A stretch of 20,000 bases of DNA from contig CAJNYD010000555.1 in assembly GCA_905331295.1 (NCBI GenBank), positions 45,319 through 65,318 of the forward strand, in the 5' to 3' direction. Origin of the DNA: Rotaria socialis. Its lineage: Eukaryota. The position numbers and the translations under genes are program-made. Shown here one piece after another: positions 3,263 through 17,635 of the stretch (position 1 is the first letter of the stretch; the number at the start of each line of letters is the position of its first letter). Under the pieces are notes generated by a model. That model had not been told where the DNA came from and did not search any database. It was given only the letters and a program-made list of their open reading frames with translations.

Positions 3263-4781
3263 TCAAGAGAGAGTTACTGTCGCAGTTATACCAGCGCCAA
3301 GTGAATCTGTGCTTAACCAAAAACTCACGATATACACTTGTCCAGCCGCAGCCGTAAATTGTTGACTAAGTCGATCGGCGCATGAATTACTTCCATCGCA
3401 GGCACAATAACTTCCACTTCGACAATTATAATTGCAAATTCGGGCTACGTACCCTCCACAACTTCCATATGGTCCAGTGCGTACCCAAGGTGAAAGTGAA
3501 CCAGTTTCGAAACCTATATTTGTTAGCATTTGTGTGCCTCCTTGATAGATAGAGGTATCATCAACATACCACTGACCTGGATCATTGCGCAGCTCAAACA
3601 TAAAAGTAACTGGACCTGTCGTAGGTGACGTCCATGAATATACATAGCAGCCGTATGTAGTGTCATTGGGAGACGAGATAGTCAAAAGAATACTTGCAAG
3701 ACCAACAGAAGTAGGAAGACATGGGGGTAACGGTGTAGTTGTTGTTGATGCTGTCGTTGTGGTTACCGATGTTGTTGAAGTTGCTGTCGTCGAAGTTGTT
3801 GTGGTTGCTGTTGTTGTCACAATATGTGTATTTGTGAGAAGAAAAACCAAGAGAGCAGCAATACCCATCAGAAGTAATAAAATACCAATAGATATTGAAA
3901 CACAACAACATGCCGAACAGGCCGGACAGATTTTACCAATACAGCGACGATTTCTTTTATTGGTTTTGTTTTTTTCAGTATTTTTCGCTGTTGTCTTTAA
4001 TCTGTCTTCAAGCACGCCCCATGCATATCGAAGACTTCTTGGTTTTGACTTTTGTTCTTGATATTCTTCCATTGATTTCATTCTCGATAAATTAGCTGAA
4101 ACATTATGGTTCATTACACTACTGAAAAGTTTACTGGATGATGATGCCTATGTCAGTAGTAAAGTAAATGAGGACTCAAAAAAAATAATATGTACCGAAA
4201 TCTCATTAAATTTATTTTTAGTTGTTCGAATACTGTGAGGATGAATGATATTGTGACGTTTTATTGATGAAGTTTCAGCCATTTCAATGACGAGTGGATG
4301 CATAGAAGTTGGTGAAACTGGATTTGATTTAAATTTATTAGTAGTAGTGGATATGCCACTCATTTTGCCTGAGCGTAAATCATCAGATAGTATCTAAATA
4401 AATAATTAAGAGATATTTATCAAATTAGAGGAAAACTATCGAGCATTGACTTCGCAGAATTATAGTAGATGTTCAATAGAACAAGAACAATTTCTTTTAA
4501 TAAAAGATTTTTATCTAGATTACATGGTTTACCTGTTTTTTTCGGATACGCTGATCATTGTTCTTATGCATGGAACGTTTTGTTTTCCTTCGGATTGATG
4601 AATTTCTACTAGCAAGAACTACTGTCACGGACCCCTTAAAAATAAAATCTCAGTAAATTAATGTGATACTTTCGAAAGAACTTGCGGTTTTTTTATATTT
4701 TTTATGAATGCTTGACTGCATATTTTCCCGACGAACAGGAACCACAGTGACTCGTATTTTCGGTTCAGTTTCGAACATCAT
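3263..4781 (-). CDS. Gene A: type II single-pass membrane protein with Thr-rich stalk and C-terminal CBM4/9-like (galactose-binding-like) domain, ~426 aa
   Basis: Exons are 4781-4686, 4634-4533, 4393-4196 and 4147-3263, all joined in phase 0 without stops. Introns are 51 nt (GC-AG), 139 nt and 48 nt. The protein runs MMFETEPKIRVTVVPV..., basic stretch KTNKRNRR, CIGKICPACSACCC, TM VSISIGILLLLMGIAALLVFLL, poly-Thr, then ...FELRNDPGQWYVDDTSI...TNIGFETGSLSPW...LSQQF...GQVYIVSFWL. Exons 1-3 match gene B in position (exons 2 and 3 are 102 and 198 nt in both). Confidence 0.85.
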
Positions 4782-6799: not shown

Positions 6800-7051
6800 T
6801 CCAGGGTGAAGAATCCGATAGTCGGATCCTGTCGGATCCTAGTGGAAAATTATCGGATTTTATCGGATCCGATGGGAATTCATTGGAAATTGGCGGAATC
6901 CTTGGCATTGGATTCCGACAGGAAGTTGTCGGATGTCGGAAAATGCCTGAATGACCAGGACCCTGTCGGAACCCTAAAAATCCGACACCTTCGACATCCG
7001 ACAACTTCCGACGCACTCCCATCGGATCCGATGGGGTGAGTTCGACCTGGG
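6800..7051. mobile_element. ~250-bp MITE-like element with TCGGA/TCCGA internal repeats
   Basis: The left end is TCCAGGGTGAA and the right-end reverse complement is CCCAGGTCGAA. It is a GC-richer island made of many TCGGA/TCCGA motifs in both orientations. The overlapping ORFs are artefacts of this repeat. Confidence 0.65.
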
Positions 7052-7466: not shown

Positions 7467-10400
7467 TTACGTGAGAGTTACTGTCGCAGTTATACCAGCG
7501 CCAAGTGAATCTGTGCGTAACCAAAAACTCACGATATACACTTGTCCAGCCGCAGCCGTAAATTGTTGACTAAGTCGATCGGCACATGAATTACTTCCAT
7601 CGCAGGCACAATAACTTCCACTTCGACAATTATAATTGCAAATTCGGGCTACGTACCCTCCACAACTTCCATATGGTCCAGTGCGTACCCAAGGTGAAAG
7701 TGAACCAGTTTCGAAACCTATATTTGTTAGCATTTGTGTGCCTCCTTGATAGATAGAGGTATCATCAACATACCACTGACCTGGATCATTGCGCAGCTCA
7801 AACATAAAAGTAACTGGACCTGTGGTAGGTGACGTCCATGTATACGCGTAACAATTATACCCAGTAGCAGTAGGATTTGAGATAGTCAAAAGAGTACTTG
7901 CAGAACCTACTGAGGTTGGTATACAGGGAGGTGTCGGCGTCGTTGCTATTTACATTGGTAAAACAGATTATCAAAGGCAAGCAAAGTAAAATACAAGTTA
8001 CCTGTTGTGCTGGTAGAAGTTGAACCTAGAAAAATTAATAAAATTTATTTAAGCAAAACAAACAATCTCTTCTTTGAAGAATGATAGCAAAGGATCTACT
8101 TTTTTGTAGCTATCAGAGACCATCACAGGGCACAACAAACGACTTTGCCTTGGGAGCTGTGTACTGATCCTAATTTATTTTTTTCTGATTGACAATATTT
8201 GATGTCAATTTTAACCCAATTACTCTTTGTCCAATGTATTTTGATCGAGTGATATGAACTCAAGCTGTTTGTAAATTGAAATTAAGTAGTAATGTAATTG
8301 AGTCTTTATTTTAATACATATCTTATAAAGTATGAACGTCATATAAAGTTGTTGCTCAAGAACTTTATGAACGAAAAGAACTCTTTAACAAAAAAAAAGT
8401 AAATAAAAATTTTCTTTTCATTCAAAAGATCCAATTTTAATCGAGCCATTTAAAAAATAGGCGACTTTGAAGTAAATAACCAACAAAAATAGAAGATTAT
8501 TCTGTACTAGAAAACTGCTCACTAAAATATTTCATGAAGCTTTACAATTAAGAAATGACGATGTCATTTTGTCTTTTTAATCTATTTATAGTGACCGATA
8601 TATTCAATCTTTATTTTCAGAAATAAAAAATTTTGAAGAAATTTTGTAATAAATAGAAAGAATTTGTTTATGTCTATTTTATAAAAATTAAGATGAAATA
8701 GGACTCTCAGTAAAAAACCTTTTTTGTATTTAAATTACTTTCCTTCCAAAAAAAAAATGGTGTTTTTTTCTAGTGAAAATCCTAGTATTCAACAACACTT
8801 TCTCAATAAAAATGCTTAACTCAATAATAATAAAATTACCTCAAAAATTTTTGAATATAAATTTGAATGCTGTTATAAAACAAATATGTAAAGAATCAAC
8901 ACTTTCGGAGCAGCAATGTGGTATAGAATTTTTGAAAAACTTATGCATTTCTATTGCGCAGGGAAGGGCTGACTAATATTATTATCATTTTGGTTCACAC
9001 CAATAAGTGTCATTTCTCGTCACAAAGTGGAGCATGACATGTGTCTGGCGCTAAAATTGTGCTTAGCATCAACGAACAATCAAACAGTTTGATTGGAATA
9101 GTAGCATTTCAATCAATTTTTTAGGAGAAAAATACCAATTAAAATTGGATTTCTTCTCGAATCTTCGTACAAACACTGCTATCGGACACGCGATTCTATT
9201 TAATTGCATACTAATTTTTTGATTTTGACATTCTTTCGTGAAGACATAAAATGAATATGATCACTAGTCTTGAAAAGCAAATACATTACTTTAATCAAGC
9301 CTTACGATCTCATATAGGCATATTCAATTTAGAGATTTCATTTCAAATTGCCCTGCTCTGTGATACTCTATGGTAGCTATCAATCATAGCTGCGAAGCTG
9401 AGAAAAATAAAAACTATATTATCATTTTTCACTTTACTCACTTGTTGTTGTTGTTGTTGTTTGTGCTTGTATATACGAAAAAGAAAGAATTATACTGGTT
9501 TTCTCATGCGACAAAGACATTACTTACATGTAGATGATGTTGAACCTATCATAAACACAAAATAGTAAAGATTAATAGTAAAAAATTACAAATTACTTGT
9601 GGACGATGTCGTTGTAGTTGAAGTTGTCGATGTTGATGTTGTTGAAGTTGTCGACGTTGATGTCGTCGAAGTTGTTGTTGTTGCTGTTGTTGTCACAATA
9701 TGTGTATTTGTGAGAAGAAAAACCAAGAGAGCAGCAATACCCATCAGAAGTAATAAAATACCAATAGATATTGAAACACAACAACATGCCGAACAGGCCG
9801 GACAGATTTTACCAATACAGCGACGATTTCTTTTATCGGTTTTGTTTTTTTCAGTATTTTTCGCTGTTGTCTTTAATCTGTCTTCAAGCACGCCCCATGC
9901 ATATCGAAGACTTCTTCGTTTTGGCTTTTGTTCTTGATATTCTTCCATTGATTTCATTCTCGATAAATTACTTGAAACATCATGGTTCATTACACTACTG
10001 AAAAGTTTACTGGATGATAATGCCTATGTCAGTAGTAAAATCAACGAGAAATCAAGAAAACTAATTAGTACCGAAGTCACATTGAAGTTATCTGTAGTTG
10101 TTCGAATTCTTTGAGGGTGAATAATAGTTGGAGTTCGGATTGATGAAATTTCATGCATTTCGATGATGACTGGGTGCATAAAAGTTGGTGTAACTGTATT
10201 TGATTTAAATTTATTAACAGATGTTGATAGACCACCTATTTCATCTAAGTGTAAATCATCAGACAACATCTAAATAAATAATTAAAAAATATTTATGAAA
10301 TCAGATAAAATTACTTTCGTATTTACAATGGGAAAAAGAATTTCGACACAACAATATTTTAAGATAAAAGATTTTACTTCAGATCATACTATTTACCTGA

Positions 10401-12367: not shown

Positions 12368-12614
12368 CCAATGTAAAATAATTGGATTTATAATCAGATT
12401 AAAAATCTATTATAATGGCACTATTTTAATCGATTATAATAGTTTTTAGGTAATCAATTAAAATTGATTAAAATACAATCAAAATCAAAAATAATCTGCC
12501 TTTTAAGGCTGGAAAATCTGATTCAAATCAGGTTGTAATAGTATCATTAAAATAGATTTATAATCGCATAAAAATCAATTATAATCAGAATTTTTACGTT
12601 TCTTTTTACATGGG
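12368..12614. mobile_element. 247-bp MITE with TA flanks
   Basis: TIRs are CCAATGTAAAA and CCCATGTAAAA (10/11), flanked by TA at 12366-12367 and 12615-12616. The interior is built from TAATC/GATTA/AAAATC motifs. Confidence 0.7.
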
Positions 12615-13031
12615 TAGCAAGACGAATGGTGTGGTTACAATGAAAAAAACCGACGTAGTTTGCTTTCATATACACATCTACATGTAAAAATAATTATGCG
12701 CCCAATCACTTGTCATAGTTTTGTTCGAATCATGAATATCGTGCTAAGAATAACTACTAATATTTTACCTATTTTGATCATCAATCACGTGAGGATCTTG
12801 TAGGCCAATGCGTATAGTAAAAAGTATAAAAACTTAAGTCAAGTTTCTAGTTAGCTGGATTAAAAATGTGTATGAAAAATCACGAGAGCAAAACTCTTAA
12901 AAAGAATCAGTTCAATATATAAAAACTCATAATCATTAACGTCGAGTATAGGTACTGGAGATAAATCGATATTCTTGAATTATTGAAACATATTTTCTTC
13001 GTATCTTAGTTGAAGCTAGTTTCCGATAGCA

Positions 13032-15749
13032 ATGACTGAATTTATGTGCACTTATCTAATAATACTCTTCTGGTCAGTTTTACTAGTGCTGGGACGCAAC
13101 TCTGAAAACGTGGAAAATGTTAGTGAATTAAATTCAGCACACGTGAAAAGGGATGAAGAATCGAACTCAATGGAACCAAATAATTATAGTAGGATCTAGT
13201 TTCTTTTTTTATTTCATTGAATTTAACTTAGGTACTCTGTAGAGAAATTTGTTGCAACGTACAAGACTAATATTAATGTTTTGTCCGATAGCATCGATTT
13301 ATCGAAAATAGAGGAGGAGGTATCTGTATATATATATATATATACATACTCTTTCACTTGTAGTTCTTCATTTATTTTCCTTTATTCTTTTCATTCAACA
13401 GTTTGAATTAGCTCTAAAAGCTGAATCAGAAACTATTACCATAGAACAGATAGAAAGTGTATCAACAAGCGAACATAATCATCAATTGTTGTAAGCAATA
13501 CTTTTTGAATGACGTAAGCGATTTATGTTTATGTTTCTGTATCGCAAGAATAATACGTTCCAATACAAGCAATACGAACTTTGGAATTATTATTACATTT
13601 ATTATTAAATTTCCACGTAGCCAAGTATGTCAAACTACTAAATGTATCGATACGTTCTTCAATGGCATGCAACAGCGATTTGAACGTTTCTGTAACTTGA
13701 CTATCACACTTGTATACAAGGACCAAAATGGAGTATATAAAGTTCAGCTAAGACTGTGCTCAATTCAGATAACCAGTACGCAATCGATCAATACAACATC
13801 AACAACGACGACAACTAAGACACCAACTATCACAATCACCTCTCCAACCACAACCACAACTACAACTGCGACTACAACAACAACTGCATCAACAACAACA
13901 ACAACAACAACTACATCAACAACAACAGCATCAACAACTACCGTGTCGACTAAGGAAGATTCAAGTACCTTGTGGTTTACTATTGATTGCTAATGTGAAA
14001 AGTTATACATTCAATACCTGCAAAATATTTGAATTGGTTCATGGTAAAAAGGATTAAATTTTTACGAGATAAGCAAAGAGAAATTATCGTGCTATCCGAG
14101 TATAACATAACTTTAGAACTGTAATAGTGTTATTTAGATTTTATATTTTCTTGAAAGGGCTAAAGATTTCGAGGAAGTTGAGTCGATTGTTGGTATTGCA
14201 AGAGTTAAACAGACAGAAGTAAATTATACAGAAAAACTTTCGCTAATTGACGTTTGTTTGAAGTCTCCAGTGTTTTTATCCCTCCTAGATTAGATACCTC
14301 ATGTGAGCTTGAAAATAGATTAAATTTTTAAATATAGTAAGTATAGAAGCGTAACAGCTGCAGAATTAGCATTGATCTGACAACTCTATTAAAGTGTGAA
14401 CAGTAGCATTTCGGACTAAGCGATCTGAGAAATAATAATTATGTTTTTAAATGTATTCTAATTAACAAACTATATGTAGAAGATTATGCTAGTTGAACTA
14501 CTAATTCCTTTTTTTTGTAGTGAGTGGCATTGCTGGCAGTGGACTACCTTTTGATAATATGCAACCATCTTTGGTACTTACACAAATAGTACCATTGTCT
14601 ATTACATTTCCTCTATGTGCTATTCGTACTTTTGCATGCAACTTTGCTCCTGGTAATAGTCTTCTAGCATATGGACAACTACTCCCGATAGCATCCAATA
14701 CAGCGATATTTTCTATCATGGGTACAACTTATGGAGGTGACGGTAAAAAAACCTTTGCACTTCCGAATTTACAAGGTATTACAATTATTGGTAGTGGTCA
14801 AGGTAGTGGCTTATCACCTTATCGCCTAGGCGAACAGACCGGAAGTCAACAAGTAACACTGACTAAAAATCAGATGCCGGCACATGTACACTCAATCCCA
14901 AGCTCGATTGATTTCACAGGCGTGACAGGTTCATCACAATCATTCTCTTCTATTCAACCATCTTTAGCGATGAGCTATCTGATTTGTATAAGTGGTGTTT
15001 TTCCATCCGCTGGTTCCTCCGTAGGACAACTACCATTCATCGGTCAAATCGTTCCATATACTGGAAATGTTATACCGACGGGATGGGCACTAGCGGATGG
15101 AAGCTTATTGTCGATTGCATCAGATACAGCTCTGTTTTCAATACTTGGTACTACGTACGGAGGTGATGGAGTAACTAACTTTCGTTTACCAGACTTACAA
15201 GGCAGAGTACCTGTTGGCGTTTCTGGAAGTTTAAATACACAGATTGGTAATACTATTGGCGTCGAATCTGTTACTCTGTTAACCAATAACTTACCTTCAC
15301 ATGTGCATAGTCTAGTCGGTAGCAAGTATAATGCGACTCAAACTGGTGTTACAGGAGCTGGACAGACTTTCGATAATCGGCAACCTGGTTTGGGAATCAC
15401 TTATCTGATAACAATGCAAGGAGTATTTCCATCACAAGGAGGTACTGGTCCAGAACCTATGGCACCTTATCTTGGAGAGATTGTTGCATTTGCTGGTAAT
15501 TTTCAGCCAGGGGGTTACGCCTTTGCCAATGACCAACTACTATCAATTTCTCAAAATACAGCTCTCTTTGTTTTGCTGGGTACTACTTATGGTGGCAATG
15601 GTATAACAAGTTTTGCTCTTCCTGATCTTCGCGGTCGAGTCATCCTCGGATCTGGAAGAGGTTTTAGCATTGGGCAAACCCTTGGTTCATCGCTGATAAC
15701 GCTAACAGTAGATCAAATGCCATCTCATGCACATAGTCTTAGCCCATAA
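13032..15749 (+). CDS. Gene C: secreted protein with signal peptide, globular (possibly SEA-like) domain, Thr-rich stalk and three phage tail-collar/MdpB-like repeats, ~655 aa
   Basis: Exons are 13032-13188, 13243-13319, 13402-13490, 13549-13964 and 14521-15749. GT-AG introns are 54, 82, 58 and 556 nt with phases 1,0,2,1, giving an open 1968-nt frame. The N-terminus MTEFMCTYLIILFWSVLLVLG is signal-like and is followed by a KR site. The last exon has a strong acceptor (TTTTTTTTGTAG ending at 14520). The donor at 13965 (GTACCT) is weak, so the exon 4-5 join is the least certain part. Confidence 0.75.
13327..13344. repeat. (TA)n microsatellite in intron 2 of gene C
   Basis: The TA dinucleotide run is read directly from the sequence. 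Confidence 0.9.
14521..15749 (+). CDS. Terminal exon of gene C: three tandem phage tail-collar (Pfam Collar / COG4675 MdpB-like) domains
   Basis: It has three copies of the family motifs: (G)xIxxFAGNFxPxG, QLLxIxxNTALFSxLGTTYGGDGxxxFALPDLxGR, VTLTxxQMPxHxH and FDNxQPxL...GVFPS. The exon is intronless. Its first ATG in frame lies inside the repeat, and it is preceded by a polypyrimidine-AG acceptor. Confidence 0.92.
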
Positions 15750-16999: not shown

Positions 17000-17635
17000 A
17001 TGAGCCAAGTTCATTTTTCTAATAACAAAGTATCGTTACCCTTGAATATGATGCATCGAACATGTCGTCGTTCTATGGAAAAATTAAATATTTACGACTC
17101 GAATACATCACCATCCATTTCATCAAAACCTCAATTACCTCCACCTTTACCACCACCCCGTAAAAATCGGCGCCATCTATACAATGGTGAAACTTTCGAA
17201 CGTTATCACTTTCTCTGTAATATGAAGCGCCATAGAACAGATCCGATTTATGCTGCTACGCCAATGTTTTCAACAATACCACAATCAACACCAGTAAAAC
17301 ATACTCGAACATTGCTAGGCGCTTATATACCTTCATATATTATTAAGCCTTTACCGATTCAATCTCCGATGTCTACTACATCTCCAGAACTATCAAATGC
17401 TAATAAAATTGATGATGCAGAAAGAGATAGAAATAAGAATAATGATCAAAATGCAAGTGATGGTGATAAAAATAGAGATGTCGATGACGATGATGATGAC
17501 GATCAAGGAAATTCATCAAGTAGTAGTGATGACATTGGTATTGATGATATTATTAATAATGATGATGATGTGATCGATGATAATGATAATGATCAAGGGA
17601 TGGTAGAAAAAATATTCAACACAAATAAGAAATGA
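17000..17635 (+). CDS. Gene D: hypothetical, largely disordered 211-aa protein (Pro-rich motif, Asp/Asn-rich tail)
   Basis: This is a 636-nt ATG-initiated ORF in very AT-rich DNA, with start context AAAATG-like (TAAATG) and AATAAA at 17694-17699. It contains PQLPPPLPPPRK and a D/N-rich C-terminus. I recognise no family. Confidence 0.6.
   Translation: MSQVHFSNNKVSLPLNMMHRTCRRSMEKLNIYDSNTSPSISSKPQLPPPLPPPRKNRRHLYNGETFERYHFLCNMKRHRTDPIYAATPMFSTIPQSTPVKHTRTLLGAYIPSYIIKPLPIQSPMSTTSPELSNANKIDDAERDRNKNNDQNASDGDKNRDVDDDDDDDQGNSSSSSDDIGIDDIINNDDDVIDDNDNDQGMVEKIFNTNKK

Follow-up and report, generated by a model that had tools for sequence, protein, structure and literature searches.

A circularly permuted, single-chain triple of the phage tail-collar fold in a gene of the bdelloid rotifer Rotaria socialis, predicted to form a three-sided knob

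The window analysed here is a stretch of 20,000 nucleotides from the bdelloid rotifer Rotaria socialis (assembly GCA_905331295.1, contig CAJNYD010000555.1, positions 45,319 to 65,318, forward strand), and the element under study is the last exon of one of its genes, which encodes three units of the tail-collar fold of phage fibres, fused in a single chain and circularly permuted. The module is integrated in an intron-containing gene of host-like composition. On comparison of sequences, it is not a rotifer invention, the fused permuted design being common in bacterial surface proteins. Our overall reading, which we hold with fair rather than high confidence, is that the permuted triple folds as a metal-stapled, three-sided knob, is secreted on a mucin-like stalk and binds bacterial surface glycans.

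The last exon and its permuted register

The exon opens where an AG acceptor preceded by a T-run ends (14520). In its frame of 408 amino acids (14523-15746) Pfam recognises exactly three stretches of PF07484 (Collar), with an expectation value (E) of 1.9e-66 and 220 bits against a cut-off of 24, and the only histidines are six, all within three HxH motifs. With the collar-arm-HxH part named N and the return segment named C, the parts of the exon are the following:

14521..15749, + strand: last exon, permuted triple tail-collar domain, 408 amino acids from 14523, phase-1 acceptor to TAA
14526..14609, + strand: return segment C1, which in an MdpB-type chain normally stands at the C-terminus; its couplings to collar/arm 3 close the ring
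14610..14891, + strand: collar 1 and arm, with HVH at the end (His121, His123; 14883-14891)
14916..15005, + strand: return segment C2, behind short tip loop 1
15033..15308, + strand: collar 2 and arm, with HVH at the end (His260, His262; 15300-15308)
15342..15431, + strand: return segment C3, behind short tip loop 2
15465..15734, + strand: collar 3 and arm, with HAH at the end (His402, His404; 15726-15734), stop 4 residues later

The first-pass annotation, made from the letters alone, had described three repeats with HVH, HVH and HAH at these positions in a permuted register. The positions proved exact, the three units were confirmed by Pfam, and the exon does end 4 residues past the third HxH and open with GSGLPFDNMQPSL, which, compared with single-unit genes, is the segment that closes canonical MdpB-type proteins. 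The unit order is C-N-C-N-C-N, against N-C in single-unit genes. Pairwise identity between the three repeats is 43%, 49% and 50%; the 'G-x-F-P-S' base linker present in repeats 2 and 3 is missing from the first return segment, and G27, G32 and G39 are substituted in all 7 rotifer-clade rows that cover those positions. Since all six histidines are kept in 115 of 118 aligned rows, while a return segment after the third HxH occurs in none of the 118, neither the register nor the histidines can be ascribed to chance.

Predicted fold and closure of the ring

The triple was modelled with AlphaFold2 on a 118-row alignment, and one canonical unit (109 rows) served as control. A predicted local distance difference test score (pLDDT) of 96.4 and a predicted template-modelling score (pTM) of 0.92 were obtained for the triple, all five models lying at pLDDT 95-96, against 84.3 and 0.69 for the lone unit; the arm/His blocks reached 97-99 in the triple compared with 65-84 in the lone unit, which lost most of its arm strands. 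Since beads on flexible linkers are not expected to score so, a pTM of 0.92 points to one rigid body.

Residue couplings were obtained by direct coupling analysis (DCA) from the 315 of 365 proteins with the full C-N x3 order (effective number of sequences, Meff, 251), plain mutual information being too noisy to separate the blocks (3.2 vs 1.5-2.4). In a held-out test, the 8 best pairs were learnt from blocks 1-2 and 2-3 and scored in the wrap-around block 3-1. Collar-to-next-collar pairs reached a mean Z of 4.19 there, against -0.78 to -0.06 in opposite-handed blocks, and collar-to-next-return pairs 3.9 against -0.72 to 0.67; random 8-pair sets (n=20,000) gave -0.03 +/- 0.35 with a maximum of 2.6. 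The couplings that close the ring from repeat 3 to C1 include I320-L19 (Z 7.5), S377-V18 (6.1), L387-S16 (5.9), L375-M13 (5.3) and A403-I3 (5.5), and further repeat 3-to-repeat 1 couplings join I374 to T36 and L352 to A38. Residues flanking the HxH motifs are likewise coupled across repeats, with S405-G133 (Z 8.3) and S263-G2 (7.8) beside A403-I3.

According to the model, the chain would start at the tip end, run down to the collar base with the return strand, and pass twice more through collar, arm, HxH, short loop and return; it would end after the third HxH, beside its own N-terminus, one chain giving what three phage chains give. That it folds along this path as one ring-closed, three-sided knob is, judging from the model, very likely. 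The proposal of the first-pass annotation that a single chain could fold alone into an asymmetric trimer mimic was borne out by the difference from the single-unit control, by the handed cyclic couplings that include 3-to-1, and by the rule of three described below; the monomer prediction gave a single rigid body and no beads on a string.

The single-unit model matches chains of trimeric fibres, namely 8KEC (E 4.9e-6; TM-score by query, TMq, 0.58) and 1OCY (E 8.1e-4, TMq 0.52), and in the full model repeats 2 and 3 give weak alignments to 8KEC, 2XGF, 5IV5 and 1OCY (Z 3.7-4.2). In BFVD the whole model matched single units only (TMq <=0.26). The closest likeness is to the gp34 arm of cyanophage A-1(L) (8KEC; described in the cited part of PMC10966104) and to the T4 gp37 tip (2XGF), where collar, arm, first HxH and return segment all align, at E 3.1e-11 in sequence and E 4.9e-6 in fold (VIA Z 4.2, root mean square deviation, rmsd, 2.9 over 96 residues). 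Nevertheless, these are three-chain trimers with a long needle (~100 residues from HxH to return in 8KEC), attached by the collar end, whereas the rotifer protein is a single permuted chain with a loop of 19-22 residues that would be attached by its tip end. The receptor-binding domain of T4 gp12 (1OCY, 1PDI, 5IV5; PMC3004832, in the part cited) shares the collar with one HxH per unit, and repeat 2 (163-287) follows 1OCY 332-514 with Z 3.7 and rmsd 4.4 over 89 residues; gp12 is, however, viral, an exact 3-fold homotrimer with a knitted head, while in the rotifer protein the faces differ (43-50% identity) and the head is absent. Tips of the gp12/gp37 type are three-chain trimers of virion fibres, whereas a single chain holds all three units of the rotifer domain, and its gene is an animal one with introns. 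The tripartite tail proteins of virophage DSLV2 are three distinct PF07484 proteins that assemble into a heterotrimer whose faces differ; according to the cited part of PMC12724248 these are viral, encoded by three genes in canonical order, and retain needle and head, unlike the rotifer protein.

The six histidines

The three HxH pairs would meet on the pseudo-3-fold axis round one Zn or Fe ion. By analogy with T4 gp12 and R-pyocin fibres, a one-ion site of this kind, stabilising the fold and non-catalytic, is probable. In T4 gp12 a buried Zn lies on the 3-fold axis, bound by His445 and His447 of all three chains (PMC3004832, in the part cited). The cited passages of PMC6116203 describe iron bound via the HxH motif in R-pyocin fibres and gp37, with six-His iron sites, treat the native ion of gp12 as uncertain, and put forward a folding role for the HxH metal site for which experimental support is said to be lacking.

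In a 54-row IQ-TREE, eight His-free rows, five of them from alphaproteobacterial genomes, form one branch (SH-aLRT, the approximate likelihood ratio support, 99), with a ninth such row elsewhere. Because this clade keeps the triple, the metal is likely to be a structural staple rather than an active site, and the sequences indicate that it is dispensable for the triple architecture. Seven of the His-free permuted triples (L013, L015, L027, L036, L037, L051, L054) are N-terminal in alphaproteobacterial RTX, FG-GAP and Hint-domain proteins, and in the His-free loci the HxH and the tip loop are deleted together.

The tip stump and the orientation of the knob

The first-pass annotation had taken the domain for a tail-fibre tip, and this part did not stand: the domain corresponds to the collar with the first metal site, the phage needle and head being cut to a short loop, so that no receptor-binding tip is present. 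Between HxH and the return motif there are 16-24 residues in 182 of the 187 fused loops measured (median 19) and 49-69 residues in 122 of the 124 single-unit genes measured (median 52), counted where a regular expression found both ends; the rotifer tip loops measure 19 and 22 residues, against ~100 for their counterpart in 8KEC. A PEP/PAP/PLP-type motif, sought with a loose regular expression, stands behind the His404 column in 104 of 118 rows, 1-9 residues away in 96, and PEP-CTERM was confirmed by NCBIfam in 2 of 5 scanned bacterial examples of the permuted triple.

Both chain ends, and with them the bacterial PEP-CTERM anchor and the rotifer stalk, would attach at the cut tip. We consider it quite likely that attachment is there and that the collar end and the flanks are turned towards the medium, opposite to the mounting of a phage fibre; with both termini at the tip stump, the collar end would point outward. 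Conservation is highest in the collar (0.73-0.77, against 0.37-0.48 in the tip loops), which could be explained by folding alone.

A subfamily of permuted triples, of which ten were inspected (P0135, P0141, P0147, P0149, P0177, P0182, P0188, P0196, P0206, P0219), carries an insert of ~190 residues in the third base linker with the motif HEQGHxLGxxH (HExxH), assigned to Matrixin by Pfam in the one scanned. The place of this Matrixin-like insert is in line with an exposed base.

Bacterial relatives and the rule of three

In the first search, the C-N x3 order was found in 115 of 121 proteins, query included, the other 6 lacking the first C only. The question raised by the first-pass annotation, whether the fusion predates the transfer, can be answered with yes, given how widespread the permuted triple is in bacteria. 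Its named carriers include Sphingomonas, Jannaschia, Planctomycetes and Desulfobulbaceae, and most of the 115 are secreted bacterial proteins with PEP-CTERM-type anchors, labelled only as 'tail fiber protein', 'phage tail protein' or 'microcystin-dependent protein'. The permuted triples of Sphingomonas tabacisoli (P0032) and Jannaschia formosa (P0092) share register, six histidines and 40-53% identity with the rotifer copy; they have a signal peptide immediately ahead of the domain and, immediately behind it, an anchor of PEP-CTERM type, whereas the rotifer copy, encoded with introns, is anchorless and has its stalk at the N-terminus. In other bacterial proteins the permuted triple stands at the N-terminus, in the middle or at the C-terminus, among cadherin, DUF11, RTX, FG-GAP and Hint proteins.

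Among the best 150 representatives at 50% identity, 142 have three units, 4 have six, and one each has nine and eleven, with 2 proteins of two units; none has 4, 5, 7 or 8, though extra units would score higher. Canonical-order triple fusions account for 9 of these 150. In genomes, the best 80 of 604 loci comprise 53 with three adjacent single-unit genes, 16 permuted triples, 3 with six or eight units, 6 with two or a cut third, and 2 partial canonical fusions, in a ranking against a triple query that favours threes. A protein of 795 amino acids (P0137) has nine collar-only units without arm or His, again a multiple of three. No phage record, of 360 matching ones, covered 80% of the query at one place.

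The separate genes belong to a bacterial MdpB-like three-gene triad accompanied by GNAT and DUF6916 genes, which shares the unit with the rotifer protein (~40-48% identity), occurs mostly in threes, and is taken here to be COG4675-like. The triad consists of separate, signal-less chains with a 52-residue tip loop and helper genes nearby, whereas in the permuted fusions the loop counts 19 residues, the protein brings an export signal of its own and helper genes are missing; among loci with long flanks, a GNAT or DUF6916 gene is close to 35 of 44 of the separate-gene type, as opposed to 1 of 10 fused ones. Tail-collar genes in cellular operons were already noted in 2010 (PMC2938197, in the part cited). 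Direct fusion of the standard three-gene operon into the permuted form was considered and found unsupported, most permuted repeats lying outside the three triad clades in a 121-column FastTree of modest support, where P0157, fused in canonical order, places one of its repeats within or next to every triad clade. A form intermediate between operon and full fusion is seen in two loci (L042:6499-7542, L067:6034-7053), where two genes out of the three of the triad are joined in canonical order.

Origin and constraint in Rotaria

It is highly probable that the triple had been fused and permuted while still in bacteria and came into Rotaria in a single event. A bacterial source is likely, the family being broad in bacteria and found in one animal genus. 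In the 54-row IQ-TREE (quick mode, unrooted, without the gappy R. magnacalcarata), the seven rotifer-clade rows are one branch (SH-aLRT 100) among 47 non-rotifer rows, and a 133-row FastTree gives one rotifer clade of eight. Named eukaryotic matches outside Rotaria were absent from the best 120 rows of two homologue searches, which does not exclude them elsewhere. Triplication within rotifers was ruled out, the rotifer repeats grouping by position and having the same register as in bacteria. Three permuted triples with 'RRL..' linkers (P0145, P0197, P0240) are possibly a second eukaryotic acquisition, such linkers presumably recalling secreted diatom proteins.

The 408-residue protein is 100% identical over 408 amino acids to an NCBI protein of Rotaria socialis, with relatives at 60-76% identity in R. 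magnacalcarata, Rotaria sp. Silwood1 and Silwood2. Full-length six-His copies are found in Silwood1 (two genes) and Silwood2, at 60-69% identity. Cys32, which replaces a conserved Gly, and Cys155 (window 14616-14639 and 14985-14987) are common to most named Rotaria copies, and a rotifer-specific Cys32-Cys155 disulfide would be possible.

The G+C content at third codon positions (GC3) is 0.24 for the rotifer gene and 0.21-0.27 for three neighbouring open reading frames (ORFs), compared with 0.60-0.88 in seven bacterial copies, and intron and exon are joined on single contigs in two independent DNA runs; the gene is therefore integrated and not a contaminant. Contamination was ruled out on these grounds together with the introns themselves and the presence in four Rotaria taxa.

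Gene model and host context

Together with the last exon, the sequence upstream of it allows a six-exon model with GT-AG introns (13032-15749) to be built, predicting a protein of 612 amino acids. Its first five exons are:

13032..13188, + strand: predicted exon 1, ATG and hydrophobic N-terminus; signal peptide suggested by a hydropathy of 2.0
13243..13711, + strand: predicted exons 2-4 (13243-13319, 13402-13490, 13621-13711), extracellular domain of ~110 amino acids; GT-AG introns, open frame
13769..13964, + strand: predicted exon 5, mucin-like stalk rich in Thr; the donor ahead of the last exon varies among public models

The predicted protein runs from the hydrophobic N-terminus through the ~110-residue domain and the Thr-rich stalk to the C-terminal collar triple, and no membrane anchor was seen in it. 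The first two junctions agree with those of a public model (P0291); an alternative with an exon at 14158 was rejected, every donor tried giving stops in frame. The domain of exons 2-4 has no Pfam match, and its Atlas feature score against SEA clusters, 0.81, is below the 0.9 bar and a weak lead, the best structural template-modelling (TM) score being <=0.36; a search with the upstream exon piece matched R. socialis itself alone. A PEP-CTERM anchor is absent from the rotifer protein, whose chain ends 4 residues past His404 with no NCBIfam match and a C-terminal hydropathy of <=1.16.

No second collar match was found within the window, and no GNAT or DUF6916 neighbour among its ORFs of at least 100 amino acids. 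Two near-identical paralogous genes, at 3263-4147 and 7467-10023 (both - strand), encode proteins made up of a Cys-rich head, with a weak match to CBM_4_9 (E 0.07), a stalk rich in Thr and a hydrophobic segment; stalked surface proteins may be clustered in this region. A high-copy repeat at 12500-12640 (summed depth 176-640 vs 10-37) precedes the predicted start by ~400 bases. By eye, 6800-7050, 810-990 and 1590-1630 are G+C-richer, with repeated short palindromic words, and resemble small transposon remnants, and an ORF of 211 amino acids at 17000-17635 (+ strand), Pro-rich and Asp-rich, is without a Pfam match.

Function and alternative readings

The rotifer would secrete the knob on its mucin-like stalk for the capture or recognition of bacteria. 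The reading as a binding knob is favoured because of the constant place of the module on surface or secreted proteins, its independence of helper genes, and the cell-surface or lipopolysaccharide (LPS) binding of the closest tested homologues: the collar-family heterotrimer of DSLV2 binds Synechococcus LPS (PMC12724248, in the part cited) and the 8KEC arm binds Anabaena cells (PMC10966104, likewise). That the ligand is a bacterial surface polysaccharide, bound for capture or recognition, rests on this analogy and is put forward tentatively. More doubtful still is the fuller picture, in which bacteria would have made a phage fibre end into an inverted, single-chain, three-faced binder working via its collar end, and the rotifer would have grafted the module onto its own mucin as a receptor for bacteria, in pattern recognition or food capture, an animal lectin class without described precedent.

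Several observations weigh against this reading at one level or another. As regards the fold, return-return and collar-to-return-two-ahead couplings replicate poorly (held-out Z 0.6-1.2 and 1.3-1.9), Foldseek with the whole model found nothing in the PDB at E <=0.001 (best E 7.9e-3; VIA Z <=4.2), and AlphaFold2 and DCA use overlapping sequences chosen for likeness to a triple, so that, sharing their source, they are two readings of similar data. As regards the metal, 7 of 16 fused genome loci are His-free (no HxH), and among the 142 three-unit representatives 6 are His-free as well and a further 8 are short of one HxH. As regards the ligand, the binding patch of the phage and virophage homologues is proposed to lie on the head in the cited part of PMC12724248, and because that part is lost here the analogy is weak. 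As regards descent and constraint, the rotifer branch sits in an open fork and no donor lineage is singled out; the R. socialis copy is off-consensus at 13 of 117 family-conserved positions (non-rotifer median 5), a sign of relaxed constraint; 3 of 8 variants in the two DNA runs are protein-changing, one of them to Pro in a conserved helix (S206P); and the gene models of R. magnacalcarata show H262Y and G213E and are without the first HxH arm and a portion of collar 3.

Two alternatives accept the fold. The pseudo-trimer might serve in protein-protein docking or in matrix or adhesive assembly (cuticle, mucus, foot-gland glue) via its collar end, as the high conservation of the collar relative to the tip loops, the collar end of the virophage heterotrimer being modelled as the capsid-docking end (PMC12724248, in the part cited), and the varied places of the bacterial copies in cadherin, DUF11, RTX, FG-GAP and Hint proteins would allow. 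We regard this as unlikely, since folding alone predicts collar conservation, no conserved partner gene accompanies the fused loci in the way that GNAT or DUF6916 genes accompany the separate ones, and a module in need of a bacterial partner would have been of little use after transfer as a single gene. A decaying relic with little or no function in this rotifer lineage would fit the excess of departures from consensus, G337D and the S206P variant at conserved sites, and the broken look of the R. magnacalcarata models; it is quite improbable, however, in view of the intact 408-codon frame with all six histidines, the 5 of 8 variants that are synonymous, the full-length six-His copies of Silwood1 and Silwood2, and the clean six-exon GT-AG model with a signal peptide.

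The remaining two are held less probable. A secreted metal scavenger or store acting mainly through its six-His site would be in keeping with the near-constant six histidines (115 of 118 rows) and the secretion signals across the family, but a single buried ion per 43 kDa, the buried site proposed as a folding aid in phage homologues (PMC3004832 and PMC6116203, in the parts cited) and a whole clade that still has the domain without the histidines make it very improbable. Least probable of all, and hardly to be expected, is an arrangement as beads on a string or as an obligate homotrimer, every repeat trimerising with its counterparts in two further chains. All solved homologues are indeed trimers of separate chains, the lone unit still reaches pLDDT 84, and same-position repeat couplings are among the top DCA pairs; the monomer pTM, the handed cyclic couplings with 3-to-1 among them, and the absence of 4-, 5-, 7- and 8-unit proteins from the best 150 oppose it, as does the split third unit, with C1 first and collar 3 last, which only ring closure or a domain swap would complete.

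Novelty and meaning

The tail-collar fold family, cellular tail-collar genes (PMC2938197, in the part cited) and the three-gene heterotrimer of a virophage (PMC12724248, in the part cited) were known already. In a literature search whose scope did not extend to subscription journals and supplements, neither the permuted single-chain collar triple nor its rotifer copy was found described; this gene may figure in the foreign-gene tables of papers on bdelloid genomes.

The work defines a widespread and apparently undescribed surface domain, mislabelled as 'tail fiber' or 'microcystin-dependent protein' and now shown in an animal. In its fused form, one chain of 43 kDa that lends itself to expression, structure solution and ligand screening, it is a natural monomeric stand-in for the very common MdpB-like three-gene triad, and the permutation predicts which end works, because the anchor sits where a phage has its receptor-binding head. 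Moreover, the natural His-free relatives are a built-in test of the role of the HxH metal site in trimeric fibres, and a single chain with three independent faces would be a useful scaffold for asymmetric display.

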